This document shows positions 420 through 7,902 of a DNA stretch of 64,000 bases, one piece after another. The notes under the pieces are model-generated. The model made no database searches. It saw nothing but the letters and a program-made list of their open reading frames with translations, and was not told the origin of the DNA. Each line of letters begins with the position of its first letter. The stretch's first letter is position 1. Position numbers and translations under genes: made by a program. The DNA is taken from the NCBI GenBank assembly GCA_965220085.1, contig CBDCOZ010000003.1, forward strand, positions 1,696,001 to 1,760,000, given 5' to 3'. Origin of the DNA: Candidatus Oxydemutatoraceae bacterium. Lineage in GTDB: Bacteria > Pseudomonadota > Gammaproteobacteria > Poriferisulfidales > Oxydemutatoraceae.

Positions 420-2504
420 CTACTGTTGCTCTACCCCTTTCATACTCAAGCGGATACGCCCCTGGCGATCCACCTCGATCACTTTCACCTTGACGTTATC
501 GCCTTCGTTCATCCTATCGGTTACTTTTTCAACGCGCTCCTCGGCAATCTGAGAAATGTGCACCAAACCATCCTGCCCCGGCAAGATGGTTACAAAGGCG
601 CCGAAGTCAACGACTCGCGCGACTTTGCCGTCGTATATCTTGCCCACTTCGGCTTCGGCGGTCAGCTCTTCGATGCGCTTGCGAGCCGCATTTGCGGAGT
701 CCTCATCCGCCGATGCGATGGTCACCGCCCCGGAGTCGTCCACATCGATAACCGCGCCGGTCTCTTCGGTCAACGCCCGAATAGTGGCGCCGCCTTTGCC
801 AATGATGTCCCGAATTTTCTCTTGGCGCACGTTTAATACCAACAGACGCGGCGCGTACTTGGACATTTCCGCCCGCGGCACGGACAACACCTTGTTCATC
901 TCGGACAGAATATGCATTCTCCCTTCGGAGGCCTGCTTGAGCGCCGCCATCATAATCTCCGAGGTCACGCCCTCAACCTTGATATCCATCTGCAAAGCCG
1001 TAACGCCATTCTCGGTGCCCGCGACTTTGAAGTCCATGTCGCCAAAATGATCCTCATCGCCCATGATGTCGCTGAGAACCGCAAAACGGCTATCCTCCAG
1101 AATCAAGCCCATCGCAATGCCCGCAACCGGCGCCTTGAGAGGCACTCCGGCATCCATCAGCGCCAGACTGGCGCCGCAAACCGATGCCATGGAACTGGAA
1201 CCGTTTGATTCGGTGACTTCGGATACGAGACGAATCACATACGGGAATTTCTCCGCAGCGGGCATCACTGCGAGAAGACCTCGCTTCGCTAATCGCCCGT
1301 GTCCGATCTCACGGCGCTTGGGAGAGCCCATAAAACCCACTTCGCCGACACAATAAGGCGGGAAGTTATAGTGAAACATAAAGCGCTCTCTGGACTCGCC
1401 CTCAATCGCATCGATGATCTGGGCATCGCGTTCTGTCCCCAGAGTTGCCACCGCCATCACCTGCGTCTCCCCTCTGGTAAACACGGCGCTGCCGTGGGTG
1501 CGAGGCAATGAGCCCGTTTCCACATAAATCGGGCGCACAGCCCTCGTATCGCGACCGTCTATGCGCGGCTCGCCGTTCATGATACGTGTGCGCATAATCT
1601 CTTTTTCCAGTTTGGCAAAAGCGGTGATTAGCTGTATCTCGTTATCTTCTTGGTCCTCGGCCAACTCATCGATGACCTGCTGGCGCAACTCCTTGAGTCG
1701 CTTTTGCCGCTCGACCTTCTCTCTGATCTGATACGCATCGGCAATGGCCGAACGGAAGCGGCTATCGCACTCTGCTTCCAACGCCTCGTCCGCAAGCGGC
1801 AGCGAGTCGTCCTCCCGCATCGGTTTTCCGACTTCGTCAGCAAGCTCCGTAATCGCCCGAATCGCAGTCTGCATCTGTTCGTGTCCGAACGTAACCGCGC
1901 CGAGCATCTGCGCTTCGCTTAGCTCCTTAGCCTCCGACTCAACCATCAGCACCGCTTTGTCGGTACCCGCAACAACCAAGTCAAGCTGAGATTCTTCCAA
2001 CTGACTCAAGCTCGGGTTGAGAATATAATGCCCGTCGCGAAAGCCCACGCGCGCCGCGCCGATGGGACCGTTAAAAGGAATGCCGGAAATAGCCAAGGCC
2101 GCCGAAGCGCCAAGCAATGCCGCGACATCGGCCTCGACATCGGGATTGAGCGACATCACCGTCGCAATCACTTGAATATCGTGATAAAAGCCCTTGGGAA
2201 ACAACGGGCGTATCGGTCGGTCGATCAGACGGGAGAACAGAGTCTCGCGCTCGCTCGGCCTGCCCTCTCGCTTGAAAAAGCCGCCGGGTATCTTGCCGGC
2301 GGAATAAGTCCGTTCCTGATAATTGACGGTCAGCGGAAGGAAGTCACGCGCCGTGTCATCGCTCGCTTTGCATACTGCGGTCACCAACACTCTGGTATCC
2401 GCCATGTCGACCATAACGGCGCCGTCTGCCTGACGCGCCAACTTGCCTGTTTCAAGGGTCACTTCGTGAGTTCCGTAGCGGAAGCTCTGTTTAATTGTTT
2501 TCAT
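420..2504 (-). CDS. pnp: polyribonucleotide nucleotidyltransferase (PNPase)
   Basis: Two RNase PH domains ([16 protein letters not shown]), then KH and S1 domains; downstream of rpsO. Confidence 0.99.
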
Positions 2505-2552
2505 TTGTATCTGCTTTCTCTTTTGTTAAAAAATTAATCGTTAAAAAGCGGC

Positions 2553-2819
2553 TTACCGCCGCAACCCCAAAGATGAGATGAGGCCTTGATAACGATCATT
2601 ATCTTTTGACTTCAGATAATCAAGCAGTTTGCGTCTGGTGTTCACCATCCTTAACAAACCCTGACGGGAGTGATGGTCGTGTTTATGCACTGTGAAATGA
2701 CTCTGTAAATGCCGAATACGTTGTGTCAGCAACGCAACCTGAACCTCCGGGGACCCCGTATCGTTCTCAGACTGCGCATACTTAGAGATTGTCTCGGCTT
2801 TGTTTGCGTCGATTGACAT
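2553..2819 (-). CDS. rpsO: 30S ribosomal protein S15
   Basis: [13 protein letters not shown]...[15 protein letters not shown]. Confidence 0.99.
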
Positions 2820-3077
2820 TGATTTGATTTCTAAAATTTCCTAACTTATCTTTAGAGTTTGGCAAGTATTATACATCATCGCTTATTTGCTTACAAAATG
2901 CCTTTGCTACCGTGATATATCGGACATATGGGGCGCATATTATGCGGGTCATGGGCGCTTGAAGATTCAGTCCGCAGGGTAATCCGTTCGCGGCGGTGTG
3001 AAACCATAACAGATAGTCTGTCCGACGATTATTGAATGTCCCCATGTCGGTCAGCAACAAACCCGCTTCAAATCCCG

Positions 3078-3335
3078 CAAACAGTTTGCAAACAGTTTAT
3101 GGAACACAAACAACTTAAGAAGCCACAAACAGTTTATGGAACACAAACAATATAATTGTTTGTGCCTCTTATTTTTGTGCTCTTATTACTGTGCCTCATT
3201 AAACAATCCACAAACAATTGAGTATTGTTTGTGCCTCATTAAACAATCCACAAACAATTGAGTATTGTTTGTGCCTCATTAAACGTTGTTTGTGCACATT
3301 AAGCAATCCGCAAACAACTGAGTTGTTTGTGTACA
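3078..3335. repeat. AT-rich ACAAACA/TGTTTGT palindromic repeat element, copy 1
   Basis: Several inverted pairs (cacaaacaa-tata-attgtttgtg; caaacaactgagttgtttg) and a 40-bp tandem at 3192-3283; related copies at 4582-4745 and 5680-5730. Confidence 0.8.
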
Positions 3336-3405
3336 TACTCCGCATCCTGTCCCATCCTCTTGTGCGCCTCATAACACTCTCCTTCTCCGCCGCCGGTCAC
3401 TCGCG

Positions 3406-4524
3406 CTACCGCAACGGGCCTTCAAGGAAGAGCCGCAACCGCAAGCGCACGGGGCGCATCGGGTCTATGGCGAAGGTCAGCGTATCGGTCTCTCCGTCCA
3501 CATCGGTGGCGGCATAGGCGTATCGGATTATGGCGGATGCCGTCGTAGGTGTGCCGCTGATGGTGCGGGTGTCGGCATCAAAGGCGAGGCCGTCGGGCAG
3601 GGCCGGGCTTATGCTGTAGGCGGTGTTATTGCCGCCGGCGGCTGCGGGCAATACCAGAGGTGTGGTCGTGCCGGGCGGCCAAATCCGGGTGCCCACCGTT
3701 GCATCGCCAAAGTCGGGCGCGCTGTTTGCCACCAGATTGATGGTTATCGTGGCGGCAGGGCCAACGCCATAAGGCCCATCCGCTCCTGCCAGGAAATCAA
3801 ATCTGGCGTAATCACTGCCGACAGTGGCATCGGCGGGCGGCGCGTATGTGACTCCCTCGCTTGAAATGAATTCGTGTCCGAACACAGCGATAGGCAACGA
3901 GGAGTAAGTATCTCCGCTGATTCTAAGAATGCCATCGGCGGGAAGACTTTCAAGGAAAAGGCTGACTTGTCCATAATCAGCGCCCTCTTCGTCCTCATGG
4001 CGAAAGTCGCTGAGGCGAAATCGCGATGTGCGGCCAACCGGGAAGTCGACGCTGCTGGGCAGGGCATTGATATCATTGAGGTTGACCACCGCCGCAGCGG
4101 AAGTCCAGCAACGGGTCTCGCGGTTGCCGGCATCATCGTCAAAGGTAGCACATACACGCAGAAACTTGCCCACATGCTCCTGCAGGGGCGTGAAAGTCGC
4201 GGCGGTGGCGCTTGCTATGTCCGCGAAGGAACCGCCGGCTGTTTCGCCCTGTTGCCACTGCCAGGCGGGGCTGAAGTTGGCTATGCCATCGGTGGTGTCG
4301 GCTATGCTGCCTCGGGCCGCGGTCAAGTGGATGTCCTCATTGGGGCCGCCGCTCACGGCGCTGCCGTCCGCCGTGACCGTGACCGCCGGTGTGCCGGTGG
4401 CGTTCTGCGCCTGCGTCGGTGCGCAGACAACAAACAGCGCCGACAGAATCAGCGCCCGGAGGCTAAGCCGGGTGAGCGCTGTCCGCCAGCGCCGAGGGGC
4501 GGTATTAGAAATTTGTCGCTTCAT
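3406..4524 (-). CDS. secreted Ig-like/cadherin-like protein, LEGPLR C-terminal family, paralog 1
   Basis: Start MKRQISNTAPRR after GGGAGA RBS; Sec-type signal ending TQA-Q; WQWQQ module, cadherin-like module, He_PIG-like domain (LPDGLAFDADTRTISGTPT); ends RLRLRLFLEGPLR. Confidence 0.85.
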   Translation of the reverse strand: MKRQISNTAPRRWRTALTRLSLRALILSALFVVCAPTQAQNATGTPAVTVTADGSAVSGGPNEDIHLTAARGSIADTTDGIANFSPAWQWQQGETAGGSFADIASATAATFTPLQEHVGKFLRVCATFDDDAGNRETRCWTSAAAVVNLNDINALPSSVDFPVGRTSRFRLSDFRHEDEEGADYGQVSLFLESLPADGILRISGDTYSSLPIAVFGHEFISSEGVTYAPPADATVGSDYARFDFLAGADGPYGVGPAATITINLVANSAPDFGDATVGTRIWPPGTTTPLVLPAAAGGNNTAYSISPALPDGLAFDADTRTISGTPTTASAIIRYAYAATDVDGETDTLTFAIDPMRPVRLRLRLFLEGPLR

Positions 4525-4581
4525 AGTATTTCTCCCAATAGTTTGTGTTTCGCGAATGCGGTTGCGCAATGCGTTGCACTG

Positions 4582-4745
4582 TAAACAATCTGCAAACAGT
4601 TAATGGAGCACAAACAACTTAAGAAGCCACAAACAGTTTATGGAACACAAACAATATAATTGTTTGTGCCTCTTATTTTTGTGCCTCATTAAATGTTGTT
4701 TGTGTACATTAAGCAATCCGCAAACAACTGAGTTGTTTGTGTACA
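4582..4745. repeat. ACAAACA palindromic repeat element, copy 2
   Basis: Near-identical to 3085-3335 apart from an internal deletion. Confidence 0.8.
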
Positions 4746-4815
4746 TACTCCGCATCCTGTCCCATCCTCTTGTGCGCCTCATAACACTCTCCTTCTCCGC
4801 CGCCGGTCACTCGCG

Positions 4816-5622
4816 CTACCGCAACGGGCCTTCAAGGAAGAGCCGCAACCGCAAACGCACGGGGCGCATCGGGTCTATGCCGAAGGTCAGCGTATCGGTC
4901 TCCCCATCCGCATCGGTGGCGGTGAGGGTGTGTCGGATCATGGCGGATGCCGTCGTGGGCGCGCCGCTGATGGTGCGGGTGTCGGCATCAAAGGCGAGGC
5001 CGTCGGGCAGATCCGGGGTGATTGCGTAGGTGATGGCGCCATTGCCGCCGGTGGTTGCGGGCAATACCAGAGGTACGGTCGTGCCGGGCGGCCAAATCCG
5101 GGTGCCCACCATTGCATCGCCAAAGTCGGGCGCGCTATTGGCCACCAAGTTGATGGTCATGGTGGCAGTAGTACCTAATCTTGTGCCCTGAGCCTCCGCA
5201 CCGAAGACAAATCTGGCGTAATCACTGCCGACAGTGGCATCGGCGGGCGGTGTGTATGTTATTCCCTCGCTTGAAGCGAATTCGACCCTGAACAGAGAGA
5301 CGAATGTGTTTTGGCCTCCTTGGGCAATAGCTCCCTTGATTCTAAGAGTGCCATCGGCAGGAAGATTTGGAAGGATAAAGTCGGGTTGCGGATAATCAGA
5401 GCCATCTTCGGCTTCATGACGAAAGTCGCTGAGACGGAAACGCGATGTGCGACCAACCGCGAAGTCGACACTGCTGGGCAGGCTGTTAATCACAGTGACG
5501 TTCTGCGCCTGCCCCGGTTCGCAGACAACAAACAGGACCGGCAGAGCCAGTGTCCAGAGGCTAAGCCGGGTGAGCGCTGTCCGCAAGCGCCGGGGGGTAG
5601 TATTAGAAATTTGTCGTTTCAT
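4816..5622 (-). CDS. LEGPLR-family secreted protein, paralog 2
   Basis: MKRQISNTTPRR signal peptide, cadherin-like module plus He_PIG-like domain, same C-terminus. Confidence 0.85.
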   Translation of the reverse strand: MKRQISNTTPRRLRTALTRLSLWTLALPVLFVVCEPGQAQNVTVINSLPSSVDFAVGRTSRFRLSDFRHEAEDGSDYPQPDFILPNLPADGTLRIKGAIAQGGQNTFVSLFRVEFASSEGITYTPPADATVGSDYARFVFGAEAQGTRLGTTATMTINLVANSAPDFGDAMVGTRIWPPGTTVPLVLPATTGGNGAITYAITPDLPDGLAFDADTRTISGAPTTASAMIRHTLTATDADGETDTLTFGIDPMRPVRLRLRLFLEGPLR

Positions 5623-5798
5623 AGTATTTCTCCTAATAGTTTGTGTTTCGCGAATGCGGTTGCGCAATGCGTTGCACTGTAAACAATCTGCAAACAGTTA
5701 ATGGAGCACAAACAACTGAGTTGTTTGCGCACACATCTGGTATCCTGTCCCATCCTCGTGTGCGCCTCATAACTCTCCTCCGCCGCCGGTCACTCGCA

Positions 5799-6750
5799 TT
5801 ACCGCAACGGGCCTTCAAGGAAGAGCCGCAACCGCAAACGCACGGGGCGCATCGGGTCTATGCCGAAGGTCAGCGTATCGGTCTCCCTATCCGCATCGGT
5901 GGCGGTGAGGGTGTATTCGGCGGCAGCGGATTCCGCCATGGGTGTGCCGCTGATGGTGCGGGTGTCGGCATCAAAGGTCAGGCCGTCGGGCAGAGCCGGG
6001 GCGACTGTATAGGTGATGGGGCCATTGCCGCCGGTGACTGCGGGCAATATCAGAGGCGCGGTCGTGCCGGGCGGCCAAATACGGGTGCCCGCCGTTGCAT
6101 CGCCAAAATCGGGCGCGCTGTTTGCCACCAGATTGACGGTCACGGTGCCCGTGGTATGGCTGCCACCGACATGTAACTCAAAGATGAAGCTGTCATAACC
6201 GTTGACGACAGAGATGGCAGTAATCGGGGGCCTGTATTCGACGGGTCCGACTCCGGCGGAGAAGTCACTCGCGACATATGTGCTTAGCTGACCGCCACCT
6301 CCGCTTGAAAGCGACACGTCTCGCTGAGGTATGGTATCAAACAACCTGCCATGAGCGGGTCGGGTTTGGAACAACAGTGTTTGGGAGACAAAACCGCCGA
6401 TATCTGTTTTCCTGAGCGCATATCCGCTGCTTCCAATAGCGACATCAATGCTGGTGTCCGAGGCTTGAGCGTTGGCCTGTGTCGCGCCCAATGCCAAGCA
6501 CAGGGCCGGCAGGCAGCGCATGAGCGAACCCGACCGCAACCCGGCGACCGGGCGCACCGCAACAGACCGCAGCCACAGCAACAAACCGCGCACAACCGGG
6601 CGGCGCGACCGCTTTGCGGATGGCGGGTTGCTATGCGCGGGTGATAAAGAACGGGTGAAAAGGCGATACGGCGAAACGCCGGCAATCCCCTTACTTACAA
6701 AGCTGCGGGGGGGGGGGGGGGGGGGTCAGTATTAAATTTTTTCTGTTCAT
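5799..6750 (-). CDS. LEGPLR-family secreted protein, paralog 3, frameshifted at C19 tract (putative phase OFF)
   Basis: ATG at 6750 gives MNRKNLILTPPPPPP then a stop at 6691. The frame of ORF 5799..6593 is open back to the tract and would be joined at C18. An internal start (MRCLPALCLALGATQANA) is also possible. Confidence 0.75.
6707..6725 (-). repeat. poly-C (C19 on coding strand) homopolymer in leader-coding region
   Basis: 19 G counted on + strand. Confidence 0.9.
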
Positions 6751-6960
6751 GGTATTACTCTTAAATGGCAATCTGCATCTCGCGAATGCAGTTGCGTAAT
6801 CAATGCCGGTACTCTGCCACACAGCGCGAGTCATGTGCAAGCGCCTGTTTGATGCCATGAATCCGGAATGTTTCCGGCATGATTCAAACGCCTTGCCTGA
6901 GAGAAACAAGATGACTTCGCTATGACCCGCCGCCCGCTGTGAATGCCCATTCGTTCCGAC

Positions 6961-7902
6961 TCAGTAGTACTTGCTCAAATCCATGCCGGCATACATTGCG
7001 CCGACTTCTTCGGCATAACCGTTGAACATCAGCGTTTTGCGTTTCGCAAATTCGCCGATACGGCGCTCTCTTTTTTGCGACCACCGCGGGTGATTGACTT
7101 GCGGATTGACGTTAGAGTAAAAACCATACTCCGACGGCGCCGAACGCCCCCACGATGTGGGCGGCTGCTCCGCGGTAAATTTGATCTCAACAATGGACTT
7201 GATGCTTTTGAAGCCGTATTTCCACGGCACGACCAAACGCAACGGCGCGCCATTCTGATTGGGCAACACTTCGCCATACAAACCCACCGCCAAAATCGTC
7301 AGCGGATTCATCGCCTCATCCATGCGCAGGCCTTCGCGGTACGGCCAGTCCAGCACCCGCCGCGCTTGTCCCGGCAGGTTCTTGTCAACAATGGTGGTCA
7401 TCGCAACATACTTGGCGCCGGACAAAGGCTGGCTGCGCTTGATTATTTCGGCCAACTCAAAACCGACCCACGGGATGACCATAGACCACGCTTCCACACA
7501 ACGCAGGCGGTAAATCCTGTCTTCCAACTTATGCGGTTTGACGAAATCCTCAATCGCATATTGTCCCGGCTTCTCACACAGACCCGATACCCGCACAGTC
7601 CACGGATCTGTCTTCAGATGATGGGCGTTCTTGTGCGGATCCGCTTTGCCGGTGCCGAGCTCATAAAAATTGTTATACGTTGTGACGCTATCGTATGGCG
7701 TCAATTCTTCATCGGTGTTGAAACGGCTATCCGGCAAGTCGCCGAACTTCTTTGGCAAAGCGGCGGGCGCCGCGCTTGCAAACGCCATACCGGCAAATGC
7801 TCCGACCCCGTTCTTGATAAACGCGCGCCGCTCGGCATAAACCGATTGCGGCGTAATCTCAGACGATTGTATTGATAGTTTTGTACGACTTTTTATTAGC
7901 AT
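6961..7902 (-). CDS. msrP: protein-methionine-sulfoxide reductase catalytic subunit MsrP
   Basis: Tat motif RRAFIK; [32 protein letters not shown]. Confidence 0.96.

Follow-up and report, generated by a model that had tools for sequence, protein, structure and literature searches.

Genes at the locus and the pattern in module B

Three tandem paralogous genes, named P1, P2 and P3, lie on the minus strand of the window analysed here, i.e., the whole stretch of 64,000 nucleotides at positions 1696001-1760000 of contig C3 in the 2.49-Mb, three-contig genome (G000) of a Candidatus Oxydemutatoraceae bacterium. Their products share a signal-peptide-like leader (MKRQISNT..RR.RTALTRLSL...AQAQ) and consist of modules designated A, B and C. 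P1 (3406-4524), for which the open reading frame (ORF) and its translation give 372 amino acids, comprises the signal peptide, modules A, B and C, a C-terminal tag and a stop codon. P2 (4816-5622; 268 amino acids) has the same order without module A. P3 (5799 to about 6593, the start codon being uncertain) carries module C and the tag as in P1 and P2, and a much more divergent module B. The subject of this study is module B (3724-4065 in P1 and 5137-5484 in P2), in which a nearly identical framework alternates with three divergent segments, a pattern that probably came about by ordinary divergence and reshuffling within a large family of exported proteins.

The first-pass annotation had described module B as an antibody-like framework with three hypervariable segments, and all peptides quoted in it were found on the minus strand, with the framework as nearly identical as claimed. 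Between P1 and P2, amino acid identity was 89% in the framework blocks F1-F4 and 24% in the variable segments V1-V3, and in the codon alignment the near-identical DNA was broken by three divergent stretches. V1 lies at 3946-3972 in P1 (GQVSLFLES; the equivalent of strand B) and at 5365-5391 in P2 (PQPDFILPN). V2 (C-D loop, strand D and a short helix) lies at 3865-3918 in P1 and, with a 3-codon insertion, at 5275-5337 in P2. V3 (the distal part of strand F and the F-G hairpin) lies at 3754-3798 in P1 and 5167-5208 in P2. Next to V3, a tract of 43 bases in F3 was the same in both genes in the codon alignment (3798-3841 in P1; about 5208-5251 in P2). The segments had also been said to differ by indels, which is true of V2 (3 codons) and V3 (1 codon) but not of V1, where no indel separates P1 from P2 and the only one was found in the paralog at C3:59346.

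Five close copies of module B are present in the genome, namely those of P1, P2, C3:59346-60908, C3:586299-587471 and C3:425386-426630. In the second closest pair (C3:586299 and C3:425386), identity was 87% in the framework and 48% in the V segments. Entropy was clustered along the sequence of the five paralogs, with a lag-1 autocorrelation of 0.25 that was matched by 31 of 10000 column permutations. High-entropy columns made up 29 of the 44 columns inside the V segments vs. 13 of the 71 outside, a test which is circular because the V segments were drawn from that same alignment. The V segments had further been thought to be more AT-rich than their surroundings. This proved weakly true: mean guanine plus cytosine (GC) content rose from 0.50 (V segments) through 0.57 (framework) to 0.67 (module C), but within P1 and P2 the gap was only 0.02-0.05 (0.52-0.53 in V vs. 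0.54-0.58 in the framework), and it is module B as a whole that is GC-poorer than module C. The median GC content at third codon positions (GC3) of the long ORFs in the genome was 0.65.

Module C (3448-3723 in P1 and 4858-5136 in P2) was assigned to He_PIG (PF05345), with 32.8 bits in P1 (E = 9.5e-08), 40.6 bits in P2 (E = 3.6e-10) and 43.3 bits in P3, all above the gathering score of 24. Its GC3 was high (0.73-0.80). Module A of P1 (4066-4404, minus strand) is a stretch of about 110 residues before module B, with two cysteines and the motif W.W...G....I..AT...FTP; it was found in four of the five subfamily members, P2 being the one without it. The sole family match of module A, to ZirU in NCBIfam, was weak (22.6 bits against a cut-off of 100), and membership was rejected.

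Fold and family of module B

An iterated genome-wide hidden Markov model (HMM) detected 189 full-length B-like domains among 197 matches, distributed over 116 ORFs. A set of 45 domains, picked for diversity (<60% identical) plus six close copies, was scanned against Pfam, and the matches were to Big_9 (19), Cadherin_5 (9), Cadherin_3 (9), Cadherin_4 (5) and Ig_SibA (3). Module B of P2 itself matched no Pfam family at E <=0.1, and the link of P1 and P2 to the cadherin-like families runs through the iterated genome HMM. The neighbours of module B in a feature-space protein atlas were likewise cadherin-like and Big_9 clusters. Outside G000, no relatives of module B were found in a search of 5.8 billion proteins (the seven outside matches cover He_PIG only), in 40 related genomes, or in metagenome contigs (0 among 249 pattern matches).

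An AlphaFold2 model of module B of P2, built from our own alignment of B-like domains, had a mean predicted local distance difference test (pLDDT) of 93.4 and a predicted template modelling (pTM) score of 0.85. It is a seven-strand Greek-key beta-sandwich, with strands at residues 4-9, 35-38, 46-49, 62-64, 75-78, 86-98 and 107-114 and a helix at 66-70. The top structural match was the cadherin-like repeat of CSPG4 (7ml7_B and 7n8x_B; Z 7.8, root-mean-square deviation 4.0-4.1, 101-105 of 115 residues aligned), followed by dystroglycan (Z 5.5-5.7) and cadherins (Z 5.0-5.3), with Rib and SraP also at Z 5-6. The search was independent of Foldseek, and because Z values <8 are common in that tool, the CSPG4 match shows the fold class and not kinship. 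Foldseek against the PDB gave weak matches only, with FimH/FmlH lectins (template modelling (TM) score 0.36-0.49 on the query), which were not read as kinship; by sequence, the profile of module B found nothing in the PDB below E 0.28. From the model and the family matches together, module B appears to be a divergent bacterial cadherin-like beta-sandwich of the Big_9 or CSPG-repeat type. An acidic loop, DFRHEDEEGDDY, is invariant in the five paralogs and is a candidate calcium-binding loop.

Bacterial adhesin domains of the cadherin-like, Big_9 and CSPG-repeat families (PF17963, PF17892, PF16184 and PF17803) have the same beta-sandwich, and the module B family has the same motifs (F..sDF.F.DeDGD.L, LP..G.L, Y.P, F.F.v and an I.L ending). 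Unlike those domains, which stand in long tandem arrays, module B of the P1/P2 type occurs once per protein; its subtype also differs from the Pfam domains in lacking a match at the threshold given above and in that close copies were found only in this genome.

On the model of P2, V1 (residues 32-40) covers strand B and its flanks, V2 (residues 50-70) the C-D loop, strand D and the short helix, and V3 (residues 93-106) the distal half of strand F, the F-G turn and the start of G. The 44 variable residues comprised 22 in loops, 17 in strands and 5 in helix, and the 71 framework residues 37, 31 and 3, respectively. The segments had been likened to the complementarity-determining regions (CDRs) of antibodies. 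Half of the variable residues (22 of 44) are in strand or helix, the same mix as in the framework, and therefore the segments are neither pure loops nor enriched in them. The core hydrophobic positions within the variable strands also stay hydrophobic (SLFLE, DFILP, TVLMT, SMILT and TLILT).

These results bear on the explanation that the three segments make up a single surface for ligand binding, comparable to antibody CDRs or engineered monobodies, and that diversifying selection maintains their differences between paralogs. From the standard up-down topology, the B-C turn, the D-E helix and the F-G hairpin would lie together at the N-terminal pole, which would be the distal tip if the protein is anchored at its C-terminus. 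The C-D loop, on the other hand, is expected at the opposite pole, and the share of regular secondary structure also speaks against such a surface. Module B resembles antibody variable domains and monobodies in being an Ig-like sandwich in which conserved stretches alternate with highly divergent ones. It differs from them in that its divergent stretches include whole strands and only five germline copies exist, and from antibodies also in that no somatic or programmed diversification was found. The antibody analogy holds only as a picture.

Selection and exchange among the paralogs

Purifying selection on the framework and the C-terminal tag is strong. In F1, the ratio of nonsynonymous to synonymous substitution rates (dN/dS) was 0.02-0.14 at dS 0.45-1.16, which indicates that its identity has been kept by selection and not by recent copying. 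In the pooled framework, third positions differed more than positions 1+2 in all 10 pairs of close copies (p 0.0002-0.018), and in the tag dN was 0 while dS was 0.09-1.17.

For the variable segments, diversifying selection had been proposed. In 9 of the 10 pairs, positions 1+2 and position 3 differed about equally, and a nominal excess was seen in one pair only, i.e., in V1+V2 between P1 and P2, where positions 1+2 differed at 32 of 54 sites (0.59) vs. 7 of 27 (0.26) at position 3 (p 0.005, uncorrected for the 10 pairs and several segment sets). In V1 alone, third positions were identical in 8 of 9 codons though 11 of 18 first and second positions differed, and dN/dS values of 2.3-4.5 were obtained on very small counts. 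This is the codon evidence in favour of a CDR-like surface. Against it, the other close pair had dN/dS of 0.5-0.6 in all three segments. Moreover, 62 independent pairs of other B-like domains (a greedy pick from 301 candidates at 55-93% identity, with two pairs involving the five close copies dropped) were at parity in the V-equivalent columns, with 0.228 at positions 1+2 and 0.231 at position 3; the other columns showed mild constraint (0.158 and 0.211). The same pairs confirm that the equivalent segments differ in other B modules as well, since these columns differ at 0.38 vs. 0.26 elsewhere. Tolerance of change in the V segments is moderately family-wide, the entropy of the five paralogs being correlated with that of 183 other domains (Spearman 0.33, p 4e-4). 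Furthermore, module C had dN/dS of 0.80-1.24 at dS 0.10-0.29 in six pairs and codon-position parity in all 10 pairs, and its dN/dS of about 1 indicates that fast change is not specific to the three segments. We therefore regard a CDR-like surface under diversifying selection as unlikely, though it deserves to be kept in view. As far as the codon positions can tell, the V segments appear to change about as fast as expected under neutrality, and positive selection shows up nominally in a single episode. The pattern in module C is compatible with frequent gene conversion and weak constraint.

Near-neutral rates in the V columns and in module C, together with a family that fills 19.6% of the genome, could also be explained by drift in a host-restricted bacterium whose paralog family is bloated and no longer tightly constrained, in which case the differences would be without functional meaning. 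However, open frames are kept in all six copies compared, the hydrophobic core positions are retained within the variable strands, and the framework and tag of the same genes are under strong purifying selection. Drift of this kind is considered improbable.

How the segments came to differ is better seen from the similarities between paralogs. P1 and P2 are nearest to each other in the framework (89%) and in module C (80%), but V2 and V3 of P1 are more similar to those of the paralog at C3:59346 (44% and 47%) than to those of P2 (19% and 33%). The codon signal in V3 of P1 and P2 is also the reverse of that in V1+V2, with positions 1+2 differing at 11 of 28 sites and position 3 at 12 of 14 (saturated), and F4 has five synonymous differences and one replacement, which suggests that the V3/F4 part is of older or different ancestry. 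Two public runs were compared with the locus, X1, in which 91% of sampled words were present and which may derive from the source sample, and X2, from another sample, with 20%. A 231-base contig in X2 (depth 17.8) runs from 5096-5207 (module C, F4 and V3 of P2) directly into 3798-3916 (F3 and V2 of P1) without a mismatch. It indicates that the locus differs between strains, and as a single de Bruijn contig it is a lead rather than proof; the identical 43-base tract in F3, which it crosses, is the likely recombination point. The segmental exchange suggested in the first-pass annotation is thus upheld by incongruent similarity, by the opposite codon signals and by this mosaic. X1 also has joints at lower depth (3762 to 3972 and 5167 to 5529), which were not counted because the paralog framework is 92-95% identical over 81-90 bases on one side of them.

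Paralog families can be diversified by gene conversion, as in pilE/pilS. The P1/P2 locus is similar to that system in that conserved tracts flank variable ones and a mosaic exists in another sample; it is unlike it in that no silent partial cassettes are present, each B-module copy being part of a complete gene that has a leader and a tag of its own. Programmed hypervariation, whether through a diversity-generating retroelement (DGR) or, as in the antigenic variation of pilin, through gene conversion from silent donor cassettes, would fit the cassette-like divergent segments between conserved tracts, and the genome does contain two reverse transcriptase genes (C3:1925588-1926484, minus strand, and C1:169854-170888, plus strand; 299 and 345 codons, one of them adjoining a large helicase/restriction-like gene). 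However, the first lies >200 kb from the locus and the second on another contig, no template/variable repeat pair was found within 8 kb of either, and the indels between variable segments are incompatible with adenine-directed DGR mutagenesis; a DGR acting on module B was therefore rejected. By motif, both genes look like retron- or Abi-type (abortive infection) reverse transcriptases and not like DGR ones. The silent donor segments that had been envisaged were not found either: blastn-short searches of 15 V segments and five V1-V3 cores against the whole genome returned only the queries themselves and the expected paralog framework, with the lone exception of a mutual 27-base match between the two closest paralogs. 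As to read-level variants, main-depth contigs of X1 (depth about 47-50) cover 3811-4408 and 5081-5636 with zero differences, and none of the main-depth contigs over V1-V3 of the two genes contained a variant, although contigs can hide rare ones. Programmed hypervariation is accordingly very improbable and close to refuted.

The explanation that we find most probable is, in full, that a cadherin-like scaffold frozen by purifying selection carries three tolerant segments which change at a near-neutral rate and are recombined through framework tracts, all within a large exported family and by no programmed machinery. P1 and P2 are tandem members of a five-gene subfamily within about 190 exported proteins. 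Their framework, in which fold-defining residues and a subfamily-specific surface are both held by strong purifying selection, is made up of strand A/A' and its acidic loop (DF..E.E.G.DY), the turn LP..G.L and strand C, strand E (TY.PP motif) together with the first half of strand F, and strand G. The variable segments are regions where substitutions and indels occur throughout the domain family. They would have diverged roughly neutrally, with a burst of amino acid replacement in one pair, and the paralogs would have been reshuffled by homologous recombination through the conserved framework tracts. Each paralog may then offer a different binding surface on the common scaffold, with the proteins presumably held at the cell surface via the C-terminal tag.

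Several points weigh against this explanation. In V1+V2 of P1 and P2, the proportion of nonsynonymous differences was clearly in excess (pN 0.52-0.55) of that of synonymous ones (pS 0.17-0.33), and part of the surface may genuinely be under positive selection. Although variable in the wider family, F1 does not vary among the five paralogs, which indicates that the framework is more than a requirement of the fold. The V segments are difficult to align with certainty, and many of the comparisons have saturated dS. Finally, the read-level evidence for recombination consists of the one X2 contig, and the lower-depth joints (depth 25-30) could stem from paralogs or a second strain.

The DNA around the three genes is also repeated. 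About 110-125 bases of the DNA after the stop codons of P1, P2 and P3 (within 3150-3405, 4560-4815 and 5560-5798) are nearly identical, and hairpin repeats (CACAAACAAC-TCA-GTTGTTTG) come after this conserved part. In the spacer between P2 and P1 (4525-4815, minus strand), the first approximately 125 bases match the post-stop DNA of P1 and are followed by the hairpin repeats and the P1 leader. The hairpins were rejected as a known Rfam RNA, the only matches in 2500-7200 being sub-threshold ones to mir-15 that were judged spurious. Just downstream of P1 (420-2840), minus-strand ORFs were identified, by reading their translations only, as a polynucleotide phosphorylase of about 700 amino acids and a ribosomal protein S15-like protein.

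The C-terminal tag and its candidate acceptor

The C-terminal tag of P1 (3409-3447, minus strand) reads RLRLRLFLEGPLR and is followed by the stop codon; that of P2 lies at 4819-4857. It is 13 residues long and ends in LRLRLFLEGPLR, an ending shared by 189 ORFs of at least 80 amino acids in the genome and by 190 of at least 60. The 190 tagged ORFs hold 162,772 residues, or 19.6% of the genome, and include 111 of the 116 ORFs with a B-like domain; in six frames, 224 EGPLR-stop ends were counted. The codons of the tag vary synonymously and all three stop codons are used, from which it follows that the peptide and not the DNA is under selection. Among 40 related genomes, the strict DNA pattern of the tag was found only in three of the five genomes of one genus, in 1-2 copies each. 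In those relatives it ends giant proteins (as LLRVKLFLEGPFR), and the next gene, about 30 bases on, encodes a secreted protein of 276-287 amino acids. The two genes adjoin in metagenome-assembled genomes (MAGs) of 'Candidatus Porisulfidus' (L087:3-5867 and 5842-6711; L096:1-5754 and 5788-6615). Judging from this arrangement, the pair seems to mark the site at which a fused ancestral domain came apart. String searches of the literature for the tag and the fused-strand motifs gave nothing relevant.

G000 has a single homologue of that secreted protein, a candidate acceptor of 322 amino acids (C3:469169-470137; L163:270-1238), whose nearest named homologues are in 'Candidatus Porisulfidus' MAGs. 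A full HMMER scan of 1.84 billion representatives gave 1049 relatives, and the best 150 of them were compared by form. Close standalone homologues with the core motif (P0029-P0064) have M.T.L...P..DPYC directly after the signal peptide, and none of them contains a tag-like strand. Fused forms, in which the core begins at least 140 residues into the protein, contained a tag-like strand in 35 of 72 cases (e.g., LDLKVFLEGP and AGLRLFLEGP), located 51-71 residues before the VDWVLVEL motif. It was also present in 12 of 58 shorter entries, and 20 of the 150 were without the core motif under the regular expression used. The tag corresponds to the initial strand of an X-module-dockerin (XDoc)-like domain, which other phyla have in fused form, and this strand is missing from the acceptor of G000.

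The acceptor core matches no Pfam or NCBIfam family, and Dockerin_1 scored 15.8-18.8 bits on the acceptor domain, below the cut-off of 22.9. The model of a natural fused homologue, P0158, had a pLDDT of 94.9 with the tag-like strand ordered (first block pLDDT 98). Foldseek matched it to ten type II XDoc chains (E 2.5e-5 to 3.2e-3; best probability 1.00), with TM scores of 0.39-0.42 on the query and 0.54-0.58 on the target for chains of 156 residues, 0.52-0.58 over all six isolated XDoc chains of 153-157 residues and 0.30-0.32 on four longer ones of 303-309 residues. When the acceptor was modelled with module C plus the tag (our own alignments, with 36 and 7 rows, respectively), the complex prediction scored 0.82 (runs 0.82, 0.83 and 0.82) and the best of three controls 0.02. 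In calibration, a score this high was obtained for 116 of 157 solved complexes and for 2 of 215 mismatched pairs, counts that hold only roughly here because of the use of our own alignments. The docking runs agreed in at least 92% of contacts, with a partner pLDDT of at least 83, and the predicted interface comprised only partner residues 90-106 (the tag and the four residues preceding it) against the N-terminus (residues 2-6) and core strands of the acceptor. The prediction supports binding of the tag but does not show it, and since the chains resemble the two halves of a domain fused elsewhere, the high score may reflect this likeness and not binding of these particular copies.

The acceptor gene is followed after 10 bases by a gene for a 1369-residue protein (L163:1249-5358) and then by a rhombosortase gene (L163:6031-6708; TIGR03902, 96 bits against a cut-off of 84). 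The 1369-residue protein ends in GGGGGGGGAIALNEVIGLLALLGLVAYGIRRQRRYE, i.e., a glycine run, a helix and a basic tail like those of GlyGly-CTERM proteins, for which a rhombosortase is the expected neighbour; a choice-of-anchor U domain in it scored 30.3 bits against a cut-off of 32. The two proteins may be the anchoring tier of a display system. Conserved synteny of the acceptor and the 1369-residue protein was rejected, as in the only relative that was compared the acceptor is followed by a dissimilar gene (best E 0.9). In a Pfam search of the genome for cohesin, the one match (E 0.056) was below the cut-off and had an internal stop.

These data can be joined in a model on which our judgement is evenly balanced. 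In it, the tag would be the detached first beta-strand of an XDoc-like domain and the single secreted acceptor the rest of that domain, on which about 190 cargo proteins would dock by strand insertion. This would be a split-domain, donor-strand display in which the variable B modules serve as interchangeable binding heads, i.e., a surface assembly similar to a cellulosome but serving interaction with the host instead of carrying enzymes. In its fused form, the tag-accepting domain is like the XDoc adaptors of cellulosomes in matching type II XDoc chains; unlike them, the X-module would be split over two polypeptides, the dockerin scores are below the cut-off and a cohesin was not found in the genome. 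As in the donor-strand complementation of chaperone-usher systems, one protein is predicted to supply a strand to the incomplete sandwich of another. However, no usher or chaperone is involved, and a single acceptor would serve about 190 cargo proteins.

Cadherin-type 'eukaryotic-like proteins' of sponge symbionts are described in print (PMC13747020; PMC10947273). They appear comparable to the present family in forming an expanded exported set of cadherin-like and Ig-like proteins, and the nearest named relatives of our genome are the 'Candidatus Porisulfidus' MAGs. The abstract openings of both papers contain no mention of the tag, of a family on the scale of 19.6% of a genome or of the B subfamily.

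Module B is a worked example of how a pattern of framework plus hypervariable segments can arise without special machinery, and what is unusual in it is the frozen, subfamily-specific face (F1) and not the variable parts. The wider context is weightier, as about one fifth of a small genome consists of exported proteins with a common 13-residue tail, for which there is now a concrete, testable candidate partner and mechanism. If the model is true, bacteria would have a new means of attaching a variety of surface proteins to a single adaptor, and there would be a handle on how cadherin-like proteins are presented by host-associated bacteria.

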